Assembly (NCBI GenBank): GCA_963789955.1
Contig: CAWBMV010000017.1
Span: forward strand, 1 to 64,000
Direction of reading: 5' to 3'
DNA: 64,000 nt
Origin: an uncultured Candidatus Rokubacteria bacterium
GTDB lineage: Bacteria > Methylomirabilota > Methylomirabilia > Rokubacteriales > CSP1-6
Shown: positions 4,623 through 35,549 of the stretch, one piece after another
Position numbering within the stretch: the first letter of the stretch is position 1
Layout: the number at the start of each line of letters is the position of its first letter
Notes under the pieces: model-generated
What the model was told of the DNA's origin: nothing
What the model saw: the letters and a program-made list of their open reading frames with translations, nothing else
Database searches by the model: none
Program-made: the position numbers and the translations under genes

Positions 4623-5935
4623 CCCGCCGACGGCTCGCCGCGTTCTTGCTCGGCCTGTTGGTCGTCGCCCTCGTCACGCCGGGGCTCGCCGCCGCTGAGG
4701 GTGAACCGGGCGCCGTCACGCGCACGAAGCTGACCAACGGTATGACCGTGCTCGTGCGCGAGAATCCGACCGCTCCCGTCGTCGCGATCTCGTTGATGCT
4801 CCGGATGGGCACGCGCTGGGAGACGCGCGCGAACGCGGGCATCTCCAACTTCCTGCAGCTCATGGTCGTGCGTGGCTCGACGTCGCTCGACGGCACCCAG
4901 ATCGTCAGCGCCGCTGATCGCATGGGCGGGAGCATCGATGCCTACGCCGACGCGGACTACGCCGAGATCCCGGCGACCGCGCTCTCACGCTACTGGGGCG
5001 AGATGCTCGATCTCGTCGCCGAGGTGGCCCTGCGGCCGTCGCTCCCGGACAACACGACGCAGGCGGTCCGCGACTTTCTCGTGCGGCAGATCCGCAACCG
5101 CGCCGACAAGCCGTATGACGCGGCGTTCGACAGCCTGATGGGCCGGACCTACGGCGACAACCCGTATGCCTGGGATCCGATCGGGCTCAAGGAGAGTCTC
5201 GAGCGAATGGATCGCGCGGCGCTGCTCGCGCACTATCGGCGCCACTACGTGCCGGGGGCGATGGTGCTGGCGGTCAGCGGCAAGGTGAAGAACGGGGAAG
5301 TGGTGGCACGAGCCGAGCGTCTGTTCGGTGCGCTGCCGGCCGCGCCGGCGCCCGCGCCGAACGCGACGGCGCCACCGGCACCGGCAACGGGGCGGGCGGT
5401 GCTCACGGTGCCGGGCGCGCAGGCTCAGATCCTCATGGGCGGTCTCGCGCCGTCGCTGACGGATCCCGATCTCGCGGCGATGAAGGTCGCGAGCGCCGTG
5501 CTGGGCGGCGGGCTGGCGAGCCGATTCTTCTCGGAGCTTCGTGACAAGCAAGGGCTGGCGTACACGACCGCGGCGCGCGAGCCGATGCGCGTGGGCGCCG
5601 GGTATTTCCTCGCCCTGCTCGGCACAGCGCCGGCCAACAAGGACAAGGCCGAGGCGGCGCTACGCGAGCAGCTCGAGCGAATCCAAGGTCAGGCCGTTCC
5701 CGATGATGAGCTCCGAGTGGCGAAGGCGTATCTGCTCGGCAGTCTTGCGATGGACCGCCGGACCAACGCGCGTCAGGCCTGGTACATGGCCTCGCTCGAA
5801 GTCGCGGGTGTCGGCCACGAGTTCCTCGATCGTTACGTGGTCCAGGTTCGCGCGGTGACAGCGGCCGATGTTCAGCGGGCTGCGCAACGGTATCTGGCGA
5901 CAGTTCGCACCGTTGTGGCGGAACCGGCGCCCTAG
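4619..5935 (+). CDS. M16-family peptidase paralogue lacking HxxEH (non-catalytic partner subunit)
   Basis: M16 fold. 'NFLQLMVVRGS' replaces HxxEH. Translationally coupled to the upstream M16 gene. Signal peptide present. Confidence 0.75.
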   Translation: MTRRRLAAFLLGLLVVALVTPGLAAAEGEPGAVTRTKLTNGMTVLVRENPTAPVVAISLMLRMGTRWETRANAGISNFLQLMVVRGSTSLDGTQIVSAADRMGGSIDAYADADYAEIPATALSRYWGEMLDLVAEVALRPSLPDNTTQAVRDFLVRQIRNRADKPYDAAFDSLMGRTYGDNPYAWDPIGLKESLERMDRAALLAHYRRHYVPGAMVLAVSGKVKNGEVVARAERLFGALPAAPAPAPNATAPPAPATGRAVLTVPGAQAQILMGGLAPSLTDPDLAAMKVASAVLGGGLASRFFSELRDKQGLAYTTAAREPMRVGAGYFLALLGTAPANKDKAEAALREQLERIQGQAVPDDELRVAKAYLLGSLAMDRRTNARQAWYMASLEVAGVGHEFLDRYVVQVRAVTAADVQRAAQRYLATVRTVVAEPAP

Positions 5936-27566: not shown

Positions 27567-28835
27567 TCAGGACACCTCCAACGGTGTTGGAACGCGGGCG
27601 GCGGTGCGCTCGTTGGCGGGCGCCGCCGAGTCGGGGAAGGCCATACTCACAGGCGCATTGGCCTCGAAGGGGCTCCAGAGGCCGAGCTCTTTTCCGATTT
27701 CTCTCAGGGCGGGCAGCACTTCCTCGCCCATGAGCCGGATGCACGTCCGCGTATCCGCGCTCGAGACGAATCCATCGGCCGCCCAGAAGCCGAGGATGGA
27801 CGGCCGCGTCTCCTCGAGCAGCCGCCGGAGCTTCGGGATCACGGTCTTGGGCGTCCCCGCGACGATCATCTGACTGTTGATCTGATCCTCGAAGGACGAG
27901 CCGCGGGGATTGGATCGGCGCCCGACCGCGTATTCGACGAACTGGGTCCGGATCGAGGGTGAGAAGTAGCCGGACGGCGTCGACCAGACCGGGTGCGCCA
28001 GGCCGGTGAACTCGCCCTGCATCCACATGAACTGCCGCGCGTTCTCCAGGGCCTTCTCCTCGGTTTCAGCGACGTGGCAGCGCTGGAGATAGCCGCGGTA
28101 CTCGGGGCCGCCGGCGTAGCCGGTCTCCTGCGCGACCGAATCGTAGAGCTCCCAGATCTTCTTGGTCGCATCGATCGCGGTGCTCAGCGCGATGTACGGG
28201 TAGCGCTTCTTCGCCGCCCAGATGATCGTTTCCTTGCTGAGCACGCCGGGAATCCAGACCCGTGGGTGCGGCTTCTGCAGCGGCACCGCCCACGGGTTCA
28301 CGACGCGATGCTGGTAGTGGGCCCCTTCCCACCGGAACGGCCCGGGCTGCGTCCACGCCCGCACGATCAGCTCGTGCGCCTCCTCGAAGCGCTCGCGGTT
28401 GAAGGCGGGGTTGACGCCGGTGGCGAGCTGCTCCTGGCCGCCGCCGCGCACGAACCCAGACACGAGCCGCCCGCGCGAGACCATGTCGATCATCGCGAGC
28501 TCTTCGGCGAGCCGCACGGGGTTGTCGGCGAGCGGCAGCGGGTTGCCGAGCAGGACGATCTTCACGCGCCGGGTCGTGGCCGCCAGGATCGACGCGAAGA
28601 CGTTGCACTTGGCCTGCATACAGAACGGCGCGTTGTGGTGCTCGTTGAGCATGATGCCGTCGAAGCCGACGTTCTCGGCCAGCCGGTAGTGCTCGAGGTA
28701 CTCGTTGTAGAGGCGGCTGCCGGCGGCCGGATCGAAGTGGCGATTGGAGAACATGAGGGCGGTCGCCCCGAACTCCCGGCCTTCGGCCTCGGGGTACGCC
28801 GACATTGGCTGCTCGGTGAAGTACATGAGATGCAT
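27567..28835 (-). CDS. LLM-class (luciferase-like) flavin-dependent oxidoreductase
   Basis: ATG at 28835 with aaggaga RBS. Luciferase-like TIM-barrel signature ('FDGIMLNEHH', 'LGNPLPLADNPVRLAEELAMIDMVSRGRL'). Confidence 0.8.
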   Translation of the reverse strand: MHLMYFTEQPMSAYPEAEGREFGATALMFSNRHFDPAAGSRLYNEYLEHYRLAENVGFDGIMLNEHHNAPFCMQAKCNVFASILAATTRRVKIVLLGNPLPLADNPVRLAEELAMIDMVSRGRLVSGFVRGGGQEQLATGVNPAFNRERFEEAHELIVRAWTQPGPFRWEGAHYQHRVVNPWAVPLQKPHPRVWIPGVLSKETIIWAAKKRYPYIALSTAIDATKKIWELYDSVAQETGYAGGPEYRGYLQRCHVAETEEKALENARQFMWMQGEFTGLAHPVWSTPSGYFSPSIRTQFVEYAVGRRSNPRGSSFEDQINSQMIVAGTPKTVIPKLRRLLEETRPSILGFWAADGFVSSADTRTCIRLMGEEVLPALREIGKELGLWSPFEANAPVSMAFPDSAAPANERTAARVPTPLEVS

Positions 28836-29644
28836 CAGGCGTCTCCTTGGCTCACGAAATCGGTGACGAGCCGCGCAAGCTCGGTGGGTTTCTCCATCTC
28901 GACGAAGTGGCCGGCGCCCTCGAGGACCTCGAGGCGCGCCCGGGGCAGCGCTTTGGCGTAGCGCTCGCCGCATTCGAGGGGCACGATGCGATCGTCGCGC
29001 CCCCAGACGACCAGGGTGGGCGTGGCGATGCCGCCGAGGAGATGCGGCAAGGAAGCGTTGTACATGTAGGGCTTCCACGCGATGCGGAAAGACATCTCGC
29101 GATTCAAGTCCCAGTGCTCGAGCCGGCTGGTCTCCGGCTCGGCGCCGAAGAGACGATCGAACGCGCTCTGATCGCTGAACCCGAGCCGCACGTAGTCGAT
29201 ATACGAGACGAGCGCCTGGTCAGCGATCACGCCGCGATCGGGCTTGAGACCCATGGCGCCCACGAGGACGAGCTTGCGGAACGCGCGCGGGGCCTGCGTC
29301 GCCATCTCCGCCGCGACCCAGCCACCGAAGCCGAGCCCGACCACCGTGACGGCCTGCGGCGCGCGCGTGATCGCGAGCTCGCCGAGCAGCCACTGGTGCA
29401 CGGCGGCCAGATCGCGGACGTTGCGCATCCACTGGGGACGCTCGGATCCGTCGTACCCGGGGTGCGACGGCACGAGCACGGTGAAGCGGCGCGCGAGCGC
29501 ATCGTAGAAGGGTAGACGCGGGAGTGTGCCCACGTCGTGATGAAGCACGAGAAGAGGCGGACCGTCGCCTGCTCGGGCGACCTGCACGGCGACTCCGCCG
29601 ATCGGAATGGTCTCTGAGGTCCAGGTGCCGGCTGACGTGCTCAC
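28835..29644 (-). CDS. alpha/beta-fold hydrolase
   Basis: 'LLVLHHDVG', nucleophile elbow 'VGLGFGGWVA', C-terminal 'GAGHFVEME'. Stop overlaps the LLM start (ATGA). Confidence 0.8.
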   Translation of the reverse strand: MSTSAGTWTSETIPIGGVAVQVARAGDGPPLLVLHHDVGTLPRLPFYDALARRFTVLVPSHPGYDGSERPQWMRNVRDLAAVHQWLLGELAITRAPQAVTVVGLGFGGWVAAEMATQAPRAFRKLVLVGAMGLKPDRGVIADQALVSYIDYVRLGFSDQSAFDRLFGAEPETSRLEHWDLNREMSFRIAWKPYMYNASLPHLLGGIATPTLVVWGRDDRIVPLECGERYAKALPRARLEVLEGAGHFVEMEKPTELARLVTDFVSQGDA

Positions 29645-29739
29645 GGTAGCGGAAGCTCCTTCGCCGCGCGGGCTGGAGCCCCGCTCGACGCCTGCTCAGA
29701 CTACCCGCTTCGCGGCGGGACTGGCAAACGCGGTTTTTT

Positions 29740-29901
29740 GTGGTGGTCGTGGGGCGGGGCGTGGGTGGGGGGTGCGGGACCACGCGGCATGCGTGCGCCG
29801 GCCCGCGGCGGCTGGGCTCCATCCCGGCGCGCGGCGATCCGCCGTACGCTTGGAGGGAACGGGTCCCGCACCCCCCACCCACGCCCCGCCCCACGACCAC
29901 C
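29740..29901. repeat. perfect 41-bp inverted repeat pair (G-rich arm / C-rich arm) separated by 80 bp, MITE- or cruciform-like element
   Basis: Arm 1 at 29740-29780 is 'gtggtggtcgtggggcggggcgtgggtggggggtgcgggacc'. Arm 2 at 29861-29901 is its exact reverse complement. Confidence 0.9.
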
Positions 29902-30024
29902 ACCCTGGTGACGCGAGCCTAGAACCCGGAAAGTGCATAGACACAAGACGGCTGTCGGCGAAGAGTGGACGCGAGTGGCTATTGGACTCGAGCGGTGCTG
30001 CGGTCGAAGCCGAGGACGAGTTGG

Positions 30025-30321
30025 CTAGTTGGGGAGGTTGGCGGCGGGGGGTTGGGGGGCGGGGGGTGGAGGGAGGAGCTGATAGGCCGGGTGGGCGGGG
30101 CGGCTTCGAAGGACTGTGATCGTGATGTTTTGGGAGAGGAGCCAGTCCTGGACAGAGGACCAGCTTCGCGGATCGTCGCGCTCCCAGCGCGCGATCGCTT
30201 CGGCCTCGATCGCGATGGCCGTGCGATTTCGCAAGAGGGCGCTGATGACGAGCCGCTTCAGGTCGGTCGGACTGGTTTCGAGCTCGCGAAGCAGATTTTC
30301 GGTCGCGGCGTCCATATCCAC
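30025..30321 (-). CDS. small hypothetical protein in a low-GC islet. C-terminal Pro-rich tail encoded by the G-rich tract
   Basis: 'MDMDAATENLLRELETSPTDLKRLVISALLRNRTAIAIEAEAIARWERDDPRSWSSVQDWLLSQNITI..'. Local GC is clearly lower than the surroundings. Confidence 0.3.
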   Translation of the reverse strand: MDMDAATENLLRELETSPTDLKRLVISALLRNRTAIAIEAEAIARWERDDPRSWSSVQDWLLSQNITITVLRSRPAHPAYQLLPPPPAPQPPAANLPN

Positions 30322-30411
30322 GCGAAGCCTAGCCTAACCGTCATGTCAATGGCGCGGGGATAAGAGTTCACGACATCCAGGGTCGGTATGCCAGTATCGA
30401 CGAAAGGCGCC

Positions 30412-30717
30412 ATGGCTGAACCGTCACATCCGTCGGGGCGTCCCCTCGAGCTCGAAGATCGGCGCTCCCGCGCCCCCGCCGAAACAGCGTCGAAGAGACC
30501 GATGCCGGTGTCGCCGCTCGCGATGGAGCGATGGGCGATCGTGCTCAGGCGTCATCGTGCAGGCTACGCGGGCTACGAGCAGGTCGATCCTCGGGCGCTC
30601 GCGCTGGCGCGGCGCAGTCATCCGGCGGACACGAGCATGTTGAAGTCGCTGGTGGGTCGTCTCCGGTCGCTTGGACAGGGCCGCAAGGGCGAGCCCAGGC
30701 CGTCGAAGTCGGCGTGA
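30412..30717 (+). CDS. small Arg-rich hypothetical protein translationally coupled to the patatin gene
   Basis: ATG 30412 with gaaagg RBS. Stop TGA overlaps the GTG of the downstream gene (gGTGAg). Confidence 0.4.
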   Translation: MAEPSHPSGRPLELEDRRSRAPAETASKRPMPVSPLAMERWAIVLRRHRAGYAGYEQVDPRALALARRSHPADTSMLKSLVGRLRSLGQGRKGEPRPSKSA

Positions 30718-33399
30718 GCGCTGAGCGGGCTCACCAGCCGGCGCAGACGCCGCCGACGGCGGCTCCGCCTGCCACGGACAACCTCGTGGGGCTTGCCATG
30801 TCCGGCGGCGGCATCCGAAGCGCGACCTTCGGGCTCGGCGCGCTCCAGGCTCTCCAGAAGCTCGGGCTGCTCGGGATCTTCGACTATGTGTCCACGGTGT
30901 CGGGCGGCGGCTTCACCGGGGCCTGGTGGAGCGCCTGGCTGTCGCGAGCCGAGCGGCAGCCGAGAGATCTCTTTCCCGAGGCCGAGGACATCGAGCCGAG
31001 CCGACGGCCGTCCACGCTCCTCACCGCTCAGGATTCGTCGAAGCCGCCGGACGAGTCGCGGGCCGCGCGCGATCCGATTCACCATCTCCGTCTCTTCGCC
31101 AACTATCTGACGCCGCGCCGCGGCGCCTTGAGCGCCGACACCTGGCGCGCGGTCACGTTCTACGTGCGGAGCCTCGTCTTCAACTGGCTCGTGCTGGTGC
31201 CAATGCTCCTGGTGGTGGTCATGGCGGCGCAGCTCTACTTCGTCGCCTGGAACCGGGACGTCGCCATGGGCTTCGCGTGCTCGACGCCCGAGGGCGACGA
31301 CGTGACCTACCAGGTGCTGTGGACCCTCTGCGAGGACGCCGACCTGACCCACGGCCAGGTGCTCTGGGCCCGGGTCGCGTATGCGGCAGCGCCACTCGTG
31401 ATTCTCCTCGTGGCGATGGCGGCCGTATCGATCCTGTGGCTTCTCCACGGCACGTCGACACCGTGGCTGGCGCTTGTTCGGCTTGCTGACGCTCTTCGGA
31501 TTCGCGGCGTTCCTCGCGGAGCGAGTGAACAGCGGGGCGACCGGCCCCTCGTGGCTGTCAGTGCCCGGCCTGTCCCTGGTGGCGGCCGGGCTCGTCGCAG
31601 TCGCGCATGTCGTGAAGCTGGTGACGACGGCCAGGGTGAACGGCCACGTCCCGCACGATGCGCATCGCACGACCCTCGCTCAGTGGAACAGCGGCCTGCT
31701 CATGATCACGGTGCTGCTCGCTCTTTGCCTGGCGGTCGCCGGGTTCGGCCACGAGATCGTCTGGTTCTTCTTTTATCCGAAGACGGGACGGGTGTGGTCC
31801 GCCGTTCGTCAGGCCGGAGGCTGGGGCGCGGTCGTCGTGGCGGCGGCGAGCGCGGCGTGGACCGCCTACCAGGCCGCGCCGTCGGGTCGAGCCAAGGACA
31901 GCGCCGAGCCGCAGAGCCGGACGACGCAAGTGGTGTTCCTGGTCGCGCCCTACGTCGTGCTGGGCGTCCTGGTCCTGCTCCTGGCGTACGCGGCGCGGAA
32001 GAGCATCGTCGCGGTCGCGATCGACCTCGACGTCGCGGAGGCGCTCTCGTACGGGGTGATCGCGGGAGCCGTCGTGCAGCTCGTGTTCGCCATCTCGGAG
32101 CTTCGACGCAGGCGCTTGCCCGGCGTCAACTACCGCGCGTGGATTCTCGTCGCGCTCGCGATCGTCGGCAGCGGGAGCCAGGCGATGTTCCTCTGGCGCT
32201 TCGACGACGAGAGCGTGACGTTCACGCTCTTCTACGTCGGGGTCGCGGAAATCCTGCTGGCGGTCGCCGCCGTGGTGGGCTTGGGCTGGATGTCGGATCC
32301 GAACGGGCTCTCGATGCACGCCTTCTACAAGGCGCGTCTGGTGCGGGCGTACCTCGGAGCGTCGAATCCCGACCGCCGCGGCGAGCAGGTGACCGACGCC
32401 GTACCGGGCGACGACGTACCGCTCAGGAGCCTCTGCAATCACGACCGCGGCGCGCCGTACCATCTCGTCAACACGACCCTGAACCTCGTGGCCAGCGTCG
32501 ATCTCGCGACCGCCCAGCGCTCGGCCGCCAACTTCGTGCTCTCGAGCTATTACTGCGGCTCGGCGCGCACGGGCTACCGGCGGACCGACGAGTACATGGG
32601 CGGCGAGCTCACACTCGGCACGGCCGCGGCGATCTCGGGAGCGGCCGCGAGCCCCAACATGGGCTCACGAACCCCGAGCATGCCCCTCGTGGTGCTCCTG
32701 GCGCTCGTGAACGCGCGGCTCGGCTTCTGGGCTCCGACGCCGTACGCCGCGCGCTGGCGCGAGCCTCTCGCGGCGCTGTGGCCCTTCTATCTCCTCAGCG
32801 AAGCGCTGTCGCAGACCACGGACCTGTCGACCTACTGCTATCTGACGGACGGCGGTCACTTCGACAACACGGGCCTCTATCCGCTGGTCGAGCGCGGCTG
32901 CCGCTACATCGTGCTGCTCGACTGCGGCGCCGACCCCGGGCCGTGTTTCGCCGATCTGGGCGACGCGATCCGCCGCTGCCGCATCGATTTCGGCGCCGAA
33001 ATCTCGCTGGGCGTCCAGGGCTTTCTGGATCACGCGCCGAACAACGGCCTCGCGGCCCGGCACGTGATCGCCGGCAAGATCCTCTATCGCCAGGAGCACT
33101 GGGATCAGCTCGGCTTCGCCGCTCAGAGCGACGCCGACCGCACCGGCGTCATCGTCTGGGTCAAGCCGGCCGTGACGGCGGACGACGCGGCCGACGTCCG
33201 CCAGTACAAGCTGGAGAATCCCGACTTCCCGCATCAGACGACCGTCGATCAGTGGTACGACGAGGCGCAGTTCGAGAGCTATCGCAAGCTCGCGTACGAC
33301 AGCGTGACCAATGCCCTGCGCCCGTGCGTTCAACCGGGTCCGCTCGGGGCGGCCCACGTCCAGGCGTTCTTCAGAAGCCTCGAAGCGCAGTATCCCTAG
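30714..33399 (+). CDS. patatin-like phospholipase with a roughly 550-aa polytopic membrane domain inserted between the Ser and Asp catalytic motifs (one +1 frameshift near 31470)
   Basis: 'LAMSGGGIRSATFGLGALQAL' (GGGxR oxyanion hole), 'YVSTVSGGG' (nucleophilic Ser), 10 or more predicted TM helices, then 'YLTDGGHFDNTGLYPL' (DGG catalytic Asp motif). The N-terminal part is in ORF 30531.. and the remainder in ORF 31474..33399. Confidence 0.7.
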
Positions 33400-33432
33400 C
33401 TCAAGACGCTTCTCAGCCGGCGGGCTGCAACT

Positions 33433-34775: not shown

Positions 34776-35549
34776 CTAGGCCTTGGCGTGCTGACGAACG
34801 AAGGCCTGAACGCGCTTCCAGGCGTCGGCCGAGGCCTCCGCGAACTCCGTCTGCTTGCGATCGAAGAAGCTGTGCGGCGCGCCCGGATAGACCGTCGAAT
34901 CGTGCTTCACGCCGGCCTTCCGGCACGCGGCGTCGAACTCGTCGACGGCGGTCTGGGGAATGCCCTGATCGGCGCCGCCGAAGAGCGAGAGCACGCCGCA
35001 CTTGTAGCGCGGGACCGCGTCGATCGGCTTGGGCCGGTCCGGCCAGCGACTGAGACCGAGCGGCCAGCCGTAGAACCCGATCACGCCCGAATAGCCGAGC
35101 CCGCTCGCGGCCTGCAGGTACGAGAGCGCGCCGCCGAAGCAGAACCCGACCGAGAAGATCGACCGCACCTCGCCGCCGTCTTTGCTCTTCAAGTACGCGA
35201 CGGCCGCCGCGATGTCGGCCTGAAGGGCGTCGGGCTTCGTTTGCGGCACGTGTGGCATGAAGTCGAAGCTTTCGCCACGATCGTCAGAGGGTGCGGTCCG
35301 CGCGAAGAAGTCGATCGCGACGGCGTCCACGCCCACCTCGGCGAAGCGGTCGGCGAGCTCCTTGTAGTACGGATGCAGCCCGCGCACGTCGGGGATGACG
35401 ACCATCCCGGCGCCCGTCGGTTTGCCGGCGCGCGCCGCGTGAGCCATGAAGCGCGTGCCGTCCGACGAGTTGAGCCGAAGGTCGCGCGAGCCGGCCGAGC
35501 CGCCGGCGATCGGATGAATTGGCGGACGAGAGTCGTTATCGACGCACAT
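34776..35549 (-). CDS. dienelactone hydrolase family protein
   Basis: 'GAGMVVIPDVRGLHPYY', 'VGFCFGG' nucleophile elbow, 'YPGAPHSF'. Confidence 0.8.
   Translation of the reverse strand: MCVDNDSRPPIHPIAGGSAGSRDLRLNSSDGTRFMAHAARAGKPTGAGMVVIPDVRGLHPYYKELADRFAEVGVDAVAIDFFARTAPSDDRGESFDFMPHVPQTKPDALQADIAAAVAYLKSKDGGEVRSIFSVGFCFGGALSYLQAASGLGYSGVIGFYGWPLGLSRWPDRPKPIDAVPRYKCGVLSLFGGADQGIPQTAVDEFDAACRKAGVKHDSTVYPGAPHSFFDRKQTEFAEASADAWKRVQAFVRQHAKA

Follow-up and report, generated by a model that had tools for sequence, protein, structure and literature searches.

A palindromic repeat family with a conserved core and variable, paired arms on Rokubacteria-type contigs

Intergenic palindromic repeats of several kinds are known from bacteria. 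Correia elements (NEMIS) of Neisseria are abundant non-coding intergenic units of about 100-160 bp with long terminal inverted repeats. REP/BIME, REPIN and ERIC (IRU) sequences are likewise intergenic palindromic repeats, and BIME-1 (RIP) carries a central protein-binding motif between inverted REPs. The tetranucleotide CTAG at both ends of an element is expected of an IS630/mariner-type insertion into CTAG with TA duplication, and template switching at short quasipalindromes is a known source of mutations, described in mutagenesis studies of E. coli and phage T4. Here we describe a perfect inverted repeat located in a 64-kb stretch of Rokubacteria DNA, the whole of which is referred to below as the window, together with the repeat family to which it belongs. 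The family is of the kind represented by Correia/NEMIS, RUP, ERIC and REP/BIME/REPIN and is distinct from them by its central conservation and by its variable, concertedly evolving, G/C-skewed arms of 43 bp.

With Correia elements the Rokubacteria family shares a distinct central region, the lack of a transposase of its own and, as predicted features, a TA-type target and co-transcription with adjacent genes as long hairpins. However, the terminal repeats of Correia elements are conserved in sequence between copies and are flanked by a TA duplication, whereas in most Rokubacteria copies, including that of the window, the arms are unalike, neither a duplication nor conserved termini are present and it is the core that is conserved; the two also belong to different phyla and no sequence similarity was seen. 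RUP and other IS630-related MITEs resemble the long forms of the Rokubacteria repeat (242-264 bp), which end in CTAG on both sides, but no IS630-like partner was found in 1.7 Mb or in viral contigs and the window copy is without CTAG ends. As with REP, BIME, REPIN and ERIC sequences, the copies are concentrated at gene 3' ends, would form transcript hairpins and preserve the pairing of their halves, and as in BIME-1 a conserved central site is found with inverted arms on either side. REP arms are conserved, transposase-recognised and carry a 5' GTAG, whereas the Rokubacteria arms vary around a conserved centre, are much longer (about 43 bp) and are strongly G/C-skewed.

Genomes of Rokubacteria were reported to be 8-17% non-coding (2017 genome paper, PMC5712423). 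No description of repeat families from this lineage was found in the searchable literature, nothing relevant on repeats with a conserved loop and a variable stem was found in the literature searched, and the family is apparently undescribed in Rfam 15 and the searchable literature. Our preferred explanation, which we consider probable, is that the window unit is a short-form copy of a MITE-like Rokubacteria family that spread by transposition, has arms maintained by copy-correction and possibly acts as a 3'-end hairpin.

The features of the window unit and its neighbouring genes are presented in Table 1. An earlier note on this DNA had described a perfect 41-bp inverted repeat, with its second arm at 29861-29901, in a unit of 162 bp. 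The repeat is indeed perfect (arms 100% complementary), but these boundaries were 1-2 nt off, and the unit, made up of a 42-nt arm, an 80-nt core and a second 42-nt arm, measures 164 bp. The window has two occurrences of the 42-mer of the arm, one on each strand; allowing up to three mismatches added none, and 100 dinucleotide-preserving shuffles gave no match. No second inverted repeat of at least 22 nt and 100% complementarity (within 3 kb) exists in the 64-kb window, where the best of the rest measures 23 nt at 87%. When folded as RNA the unit reached -158.4 kcal/mol (z = -11.6 versus shuffles), while the stability of the 80-nt core alone was unremarkable (z = -0.5). Five G-runs of three or more were counted in the G-rich arm, one of them of six Gs, and not six runs as had been noted. 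The inner end of the left arm, GGGACC, agrees with the family consensus GGGGTCGCGGGACC. No protein or RNA-family match was found on the 164-bp unit.

Table 1. Coordinates of the inverted repeat and of neighbouring genes in the window (plus strand of the element set by the orientation of its core, which in the window is the plus strand of the window).
Feature	Position	Strand	Remarks
Luciferase-like monooxygenase (LLM)	27567-28835	minus	operon with hydrolase
Alpha/beta-hydrolase	28835-29644	minus	Pfam Abhydrolase_1/6; operon start 96 nt left of repeat
Left arm	29740-29781	plus	42 nt, G-rich, GTGGTGGTCGTGGGGCGGGGCGTGGGTGGGGGGTGCGGGACC
Core (spacer between arms)	29782-29861	plus	80 nt; common to all family members
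Core block 1	29782-29788	plus	ACGCGGC; adjoins left arm; (nearly) invariant in 104 aligned copies
Core block 2	29810-29824	plus	GGCTGGGCTCCATCC; family's most conserved stretch; invariant columns in 104-copy alignment
Core block 3	29855-29861	plus	GGGAACG; adjoins right arm; invariant columns in 104-copy alignment
Right arm	29862-29903	plus	42 nt, C-rich, exact reverse complement of left arm
Small ORF	30025-30321	minus	conserved hypothetical; reads towards repeat; no Pfam match
Patatin-like gene	30531-33399	plus	right of small ORF; NDH2-type oxidoreductase next

Further copies were sought with a pattern consisting of CACGNGGC, N17-28, GGCTGGGCTCCAYC, N24-38 and GGAACG, the strict form of which the window matches. 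This core pattern was found on at least 120 soil-metagenome contigs, and no match was obtained in viral contigs. A family profile built from 104 copies, used with nhmmer, recovered every pattern-defined copy. It detected five copies in 467 kb made up of the window and the Rokubacteria-type loci L001-L045, none in the 368 kb of the hydrolase loci L046-L080, nearly all of which are titled as other phyla, and eight in 881 kb of metagenome loci in addition to the copy by which each locus was selected. The resulting density is about 1 copy per 100 kb, and the 64-kb window holds one. Mean GC was 70% in the metagenome loci and 68% in the window. An HMM of the core built from three copies matched the window at 29782-29862 (E=2.7e-17) and the HMM of the 104-copy family at 29756-29886 (E=3.1e-22). 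In the window copy ACGNGGC, GGCTGGGCTCCAYC and GGAACG stand at the fixed spacing of the family, and the arms (42 nt, 100% paired) fall within the 35-50 nt or so of the family, with the G-rich arm 5' on the plus strand of the core. The window repeat thus belongs, with near certainty, to a palindromic repeat family specific to Rokubacteria, of which it is a resident copy. As found here, the family is confined to Rokubacteria-type (Methylomirabilota) contigs and is non-coding, multi-copy and MITE-like. An exact 28-mer of the window arm had no match in the GTDB species genomes.

Anatomy was analysed on 128 copies, those from metagenomes being the matches listed. The core is 78-83 nt long with the invariant blocks ACGCGGC, GGCTGGGCTCCATC and GGGAACG, and a minor core subtype, which includes the copy of L019, also exists. 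Most arms measure 35-50 nt, with a median of 43 nt, and their complementarity is about 90%, with a mismatch rate of 5-6% at arm positions 10-40 and of 10-16% in the first ten positions; left arms are 52% G and right arms 53% C. At 7 bp from the core, the right arm of many copies has the same single-nucleotide bulge, which is conserved. Perfect arms were observed in three copies (window, L003, L169). The mismatch rates at the individual arm positions predict that about 3.5% of copies will be perfect by chance, which places the window copy in the tail of what the family shows and gives it no special status. A search of Rfam 15 at permissive E-values with the window region and 13 family loci returned chance-level matches, none of them on the elements, and neither RNAalifold nor a scan of column pairs gave helices with covariation support in the core. 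The core thus looks like a primary-sequence site, not a folded RNA domain.

The orthologous site was compared in related genomes. The closest relatives of the hydrolase in the GTDB species genomes are all from Rokubacteria/Methylomirabilota MAGs (L001, 92% identical; L002, 90%; L003, 88%). Two such MAGs, L003 and L011, carry the element at the orthologous site. In L003 a perfect 43-nt inverted repeat directly follows the same T-run at the same position in flanks that are 88% identical; its arms differ from those of the window at many positions and the cores align closely. In L011 the arms are decayed and the element sits between a lactonase gene (PF10282) and the hydrolase; this 12.8-kb locus holds two copies, the second about 3 kb from the first. 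In L001, the closest relative, nothing is left but the left arm with the first 7 nt of core; the remnant in L002 is shorter, and no trace was found at this site in L004 and L007. Because of these copies, remnants and absences, the element is taken to be old at this locus, independent of the patatin gene and losable, and it predates the split of the window lineage from those of L003 and L011. It has been kept at the locus across a hydrolase divergence down to 78% amino-acid identity. The native flank of element-free relatives resumes in the window 13 nt from the left arm, so the window copy either never had, or has precisely lost, the terminal repeats of the long form described below.

The earlier note had proposed that the repeat may mark an insertion boundary next to a patatin block and had advised a synteny comparison of the 29.7-33.4 kb block. 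This comparison bore out the variability of the patatin block (about 30400-33430), which is a variable insertion (an insertion/deletion polymorphism between close relatives), lacking in L001, L002, L004, L005 and L007 and present in L003 (27-35 kb aligned). Variability of this kind is what a scar or boundary of a patatin insertion would need, but the block begins about 470 nt away from the repeat, beyond the conserved small ORF, and the element occurs in L011, between lactonase and hydrolase, and as a remnant in L001, neither with a patatin match. L011 is taken to be without the patatin block because its sole further match to the window is one of about 200 bp at 34792-34994. An assembly artefact, the companion of this explanation, is contradicted by independent assemblies that show the identical architecture at the same site. 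Both are refuted, such an origin being hardly credible, and the window repeat no longer suggests a genomic-island boundary. The low-GC islet said to adjoin it is weak (62-66% GC at 29900-30500 versus about 68-72% around). It had further been argued that a single-copy element conserved in position in relatives without the patatin block would more likely be a regulatory hairpin than a mobile element; position is conserved in such relatives, but at the family level the element is not single-copy.

Several side observations were made at this site. The deletion junction in L001, at about 5860-5900, adjoins CCACGCG, which is also found after the right arm in L011, and the loss in L001 may be a deletion between short direct repeats. 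The lactonase gene of L011 (PF10282, 4643-5710) is intact and ends 58 nt from the element, and only fragments resembling its 3' end are seen in L003 (about 5320-5740) and, by eye, at 29904-30024 of the window; judged from these fragments, the gene appears to have decayed in the lineage of the window and L003. In the five patatin-free relatives the NDH2-type gene follows the small ORF almost directly.

The two arms have changed together. Between the window and L003 copies 13 arm positions are changed on both sides and still paired, and none is changed on one side only, demonstrating at the level of the aligned copies that the arms of the window copy changed in concert. Over all ortholog pairs 130 double changes that kept Watson-Crick pairing were counted versus 127 single changes, a double-change count that slippage of the alignment in G-runs may inflate, although indels common to both arms are themselves concerted changes. 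Double changes comprised 52 of transversion type versus 35 of transition type, with no enrichment of transitions, and single changes 50 transitions versus 31 transversions. The same signal was obtained from the 104-copy alignment, where standard pairs made up 80.2% of cells (62.3% in shuffled data), changes on both sides were found in 555 cells (shuffled, 207 +/- 12) and the covariation score was 0.413 (shuffled, 0.144). None of 500 shuffles reached the observed value on any of the three measures, and in a control in which the 3' partner was slid by 1-3 columns 41-58% of cells paired. The arms of non-orthologous copies are nevertheless no more alike in their outer 24 nt (65%) than shuffled arms (62%), whereas their cores are 77% identical. 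Mismatches of the A.C type exceed those of the G.T type about 2:1 on the usually transcribed strand, in every gene context, which argues against RNA-level selection there. Stepwise RNA compensation through G.U pairs was considered and is unsupported, given the double changes without transition bias and this 2:1 excess of A.C over G.T.

These patterns would be accounted for if one arm were copied onto the other at the DNA level while the hairpin is folded, by intramolecular template switching or by gene conversion, and we infer that after insertion the arms are likely kept complementary mainly by such copy-correction. The perfect 42-bp match of the window would then be a recently corrected copy. 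Quasipalindrome correction of the known type would likewise remove arm mismatches or copy them, giving double changes of any type; the difference lies in its proposed action here as a long-term force on a 43-bp repeat family. Identical arms might also be maintained by recombination between them if they were the two recombination sites of an inverton flanking an invertible 80-bp segment, and arms perfect in both the window and L003 could be read in this way. This is very improbable, as the core has the same orientation in the window, L003 and L011, the family has a fixed orientation bias relative to genes, the arm sequences are not conserved between copies, whereas those of recombinase sites would be, and in most copies the arms are imperfect. 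Moreover, no recombinase or transposase gene lies within about 5 kb of the window repeat and no promoter-like site was detected.

The designation MITE-like in the earlier note holds at the family level, where multiple copies, presence/absence polymorphism and a subfamily of long forms whose conserved terminal repeats end in CTAG were found; it does not hold for the window copy and other short forms as regards target-site duplications and conserved termini. The window copy is small (well below the limit of about 500 bp for MITEs) and non-coding with terminal inverted repeats (164 bp, 42-nt repeats). The search for target-site duplications recommended in the note found none among 106 copies, that of the window included, when direct repeats of at least 3 nt were sought where the arms end. 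Conserved termini are lacking in the window copy and in 99 of 114 others, and occur in the 15 long forms among 114 copies alone. Polymorphism was seen at two places. At the window locus the site is filled in the window, L003 and L011, retains remnants in L001 and L002 and shows no trace in L004 and L007. The single clear filled/empty comparison is at a divergent-promoter region, where the site is filled in L104, with 173 nt plus 15 and 4 unpaired nt, and empty in the orthologous L170 and L200, which have 16 and 2 unrelated nt at the insertion point. The outer arms might have been copied in inverted form from the target flank, but for L104 this was rejected, its arms not deriving from the sequence of the empty site. 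As a separate observation, GCTATG within the 15 extra left nt of L104 is complementary to CATAGC in its right flank, where the empty-site relatives read GTGGGA, and the L104 arms may be extending outward by copying.

The long form (242-264 bp) accounts for 15 of 114 copies (about 13%), nine of them with both ends, among which are L098, L121, L140, L146, L159, L161, L163 and L180, while one end was found in L123, L134, L172, L177 and L193. Its terminal repeat is a conserved 26 nt, CTAGTGTCCCGTCCTCGAAGTCATGT, located 55-68 nt outside the core and ending in CTAG; a sequence beginning CTAGTGTCCCGTCC stands at both ends of the form. This terminal repeat was never found without a core in 1.7 Mb and had no match in viral contigs, and no transposase-bearing partner with such ends was present in the 1.7 Mb. 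The minor core subtype has a related end that starts with CTAG, and long-form ends are absent from the copies of the window, L003, L011 and L104. Stop codons adjoining copies were TAG in 65% of cases versus a background of 42%. CTAG ends together with this TAG excess would point to a TA target of the IS630/Tc1-mariner type; the long-form CTAG ends are compatible with a putative TA duplication. Taken together, the family is MITE-like and has likely spread by transposition.

Gene context was determined with a crude GC3-based ORF caller. By this measure the gene on the 5' side of the core points into the element in 80 of 110 copies, with mostly 0-50 nt (median about 10 nt) from stop codon to arm, and no orientation bias was seen on the other side of the core (53 versus 50). 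Between tandem genes the element was co-oriented in 37 copies and anti-oriented in 13; a further 28 copies lie between convergent and 9 between divergent genes. In two loci, L199 and L153, a convergent gene pair has two elements side by side, and each element is oriented like the gene to which it belongs (ORFs checked); L094 has the same pair of a plus followed by a minus element. Either strand reads the G-rich arm first, and the gene polarity therefore concerns the core only. This polarity suggests a transcript-level role or an orientation-dependent tolerance. Between orthologs the core is 87% conserved versus 84% for the largely coding flanks, and this, together with the strong orientation bias, suggests a selected function rather than purely selfish DNA.

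A transcript crossing the unit would fold into a very stable hairpin, and the family may act, or be tolerated, as a hairpin at the 3' end by which the transcript is terminated or stabilised. For the window copy it is plausible that the hairpin separates the small ORF from the hydrolase-LLM operon, which it would insulate from small-ORF read-through in the less common orientation: the gene reading into the element is the small ORF (in the ancestral state the lactonase, as L011 has it), and it does so in the anti sense. A canonical intrinsic (Rho-independent) terminator was rejected as a candidate, there being no U-tract, no terminator-like site in 29400-30500, a loop of 80 nt and a T-run of at least four after the right arm in only 2 of 106 copies.

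The same gene context could be explained by a cis-acting 3'-UTR function that depends on orientation, the family being a module that is either a structured RNA or a long stem presenting a protein-binding site. Purifying selection would then maintain the family, its MITE-like features would reflect its origin only, the core would serve for recognition, and the stem would be a terminator or nuclease barrier. We regard this as a genuine possibility but not a likely one. It would fit the 80 of 110 copies placed 0-50 nt past the stop of a co-oriented gene, the 37 co-oriented versus 13 anti-oriented tandem copies, the one co-oriented element per gene in convergent pairs, the core conservation relative to flanks, the retention at the window locus down to 78% hydrolase identity and the conserved right-arm bulge. 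However, it sits poorly with a core that has no covariation-supported helix and no Rfam match, with arm double changes that show no transition bias and with A.C mismatches exceeding G.U on the usually transcribed strand. The element has also been lost or half-deleted in L001, L002, L004, L005 and L007 with the neighbouring genes undisrupted, and the window copy is in the minority orientation. Rather more tentatively still, the family may be a domesticated, orientation-dependent 3'-end module, more than selfish DNA, with a self-correcting stem of roughly 43 bp and an invariant core (GGCTGGGCTCCATCC, GGGAACG) recognised by a protein or RNA; if so, it would offer, across a whole phylum and in a lineage without cultures, a natural system in which to study how palindromes are maintained and how transcript ends depend on hairpins. 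The family also provides a large natural data set (at least 120 copies, with orthologous sets) on demonstrated concerted change of paired arms, which bears on the tolerance and maintenance of long palindromes in bacteria. For the Rokubacteria, an abundant group that is uncultivated, the family annotates a recurrent intergenic feature otherwise flagged as an odd palindrome and is a marker for Rokubacteria contigs in soil metagenomes.

The position of the repeat beside the hydrolase-LLM operon raises the further explanation of a locus-specific hairpin, cruciform or G-quadruplex controlling the operon promoter. The hydrolase start lies 96 nt from the left arm, in agreement with the figure of about 95 bp given previously, a conserved TTGCCA-N18-TAGTCT motif is found 13 nt from the repeat, and the left arm contains a canonical G4 motif, GGGGCGGGGCGTGGGTGGGGGG. 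Such a switch is nonetheless improbable and largely refuted by the distribution of the element, since the same unit occurs at 120 or more unrelated loci, mostly at gene 3' ends, and the hydrolase operon and upstream motif persist in close relatives that have no element. A scan of 29400-30500 for promoter and terminator consensus sequences gave no sites. The G4-prone arm noted earlier is thus real for the window but is not a family feature: the motif was found in 26 of 105 left arms versus 15.6 +/- 3.4 in shuffled arms, a mild enrichment that does not define the family.

The TTGCCA-N18-TAGTCT motif (29727-29698, minus strand) is located just upstream of the hydrolase and is a candidate promoter that scores below the threshold of the consensus scan; it is kept in L001, L002, L003, L004 and L007, with or without the element, and is slightly altered in L011. 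Other neighbours in the window are HpaB, a solute-binding protein, a dienelactone hydrolase and an amidohydrolase. No tRNA was found in a scan of the window and blastn of 29650-30030 against plasmids gave no match. A weak Rfam match to the dauA motif at 30470-30556 (24.6 bits versus a gathering score of 45, E=0.56) was taken as chance. The small ORF is considered a real gene because its protein is 61-89% identical across seven related loci. About 75 of its residues are conserved, it is present in L001-L007 and its C-terminal tail is variable and proline-rich; the G-rich tract that encodes this tail (30025-30110) is 77% similar to the repeat arm. The patatin-like gene of the window is split over two frames; the N-terminal patatin domain is read in that of 30531 and everything else in that of 31474, the junction being at about 31400-31480. 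In L003 a single open frame of about 1000 codons, counted between stops, holds both parts, and the split in the window reflects either a pseudogene with a frameshift or an error of assembly.
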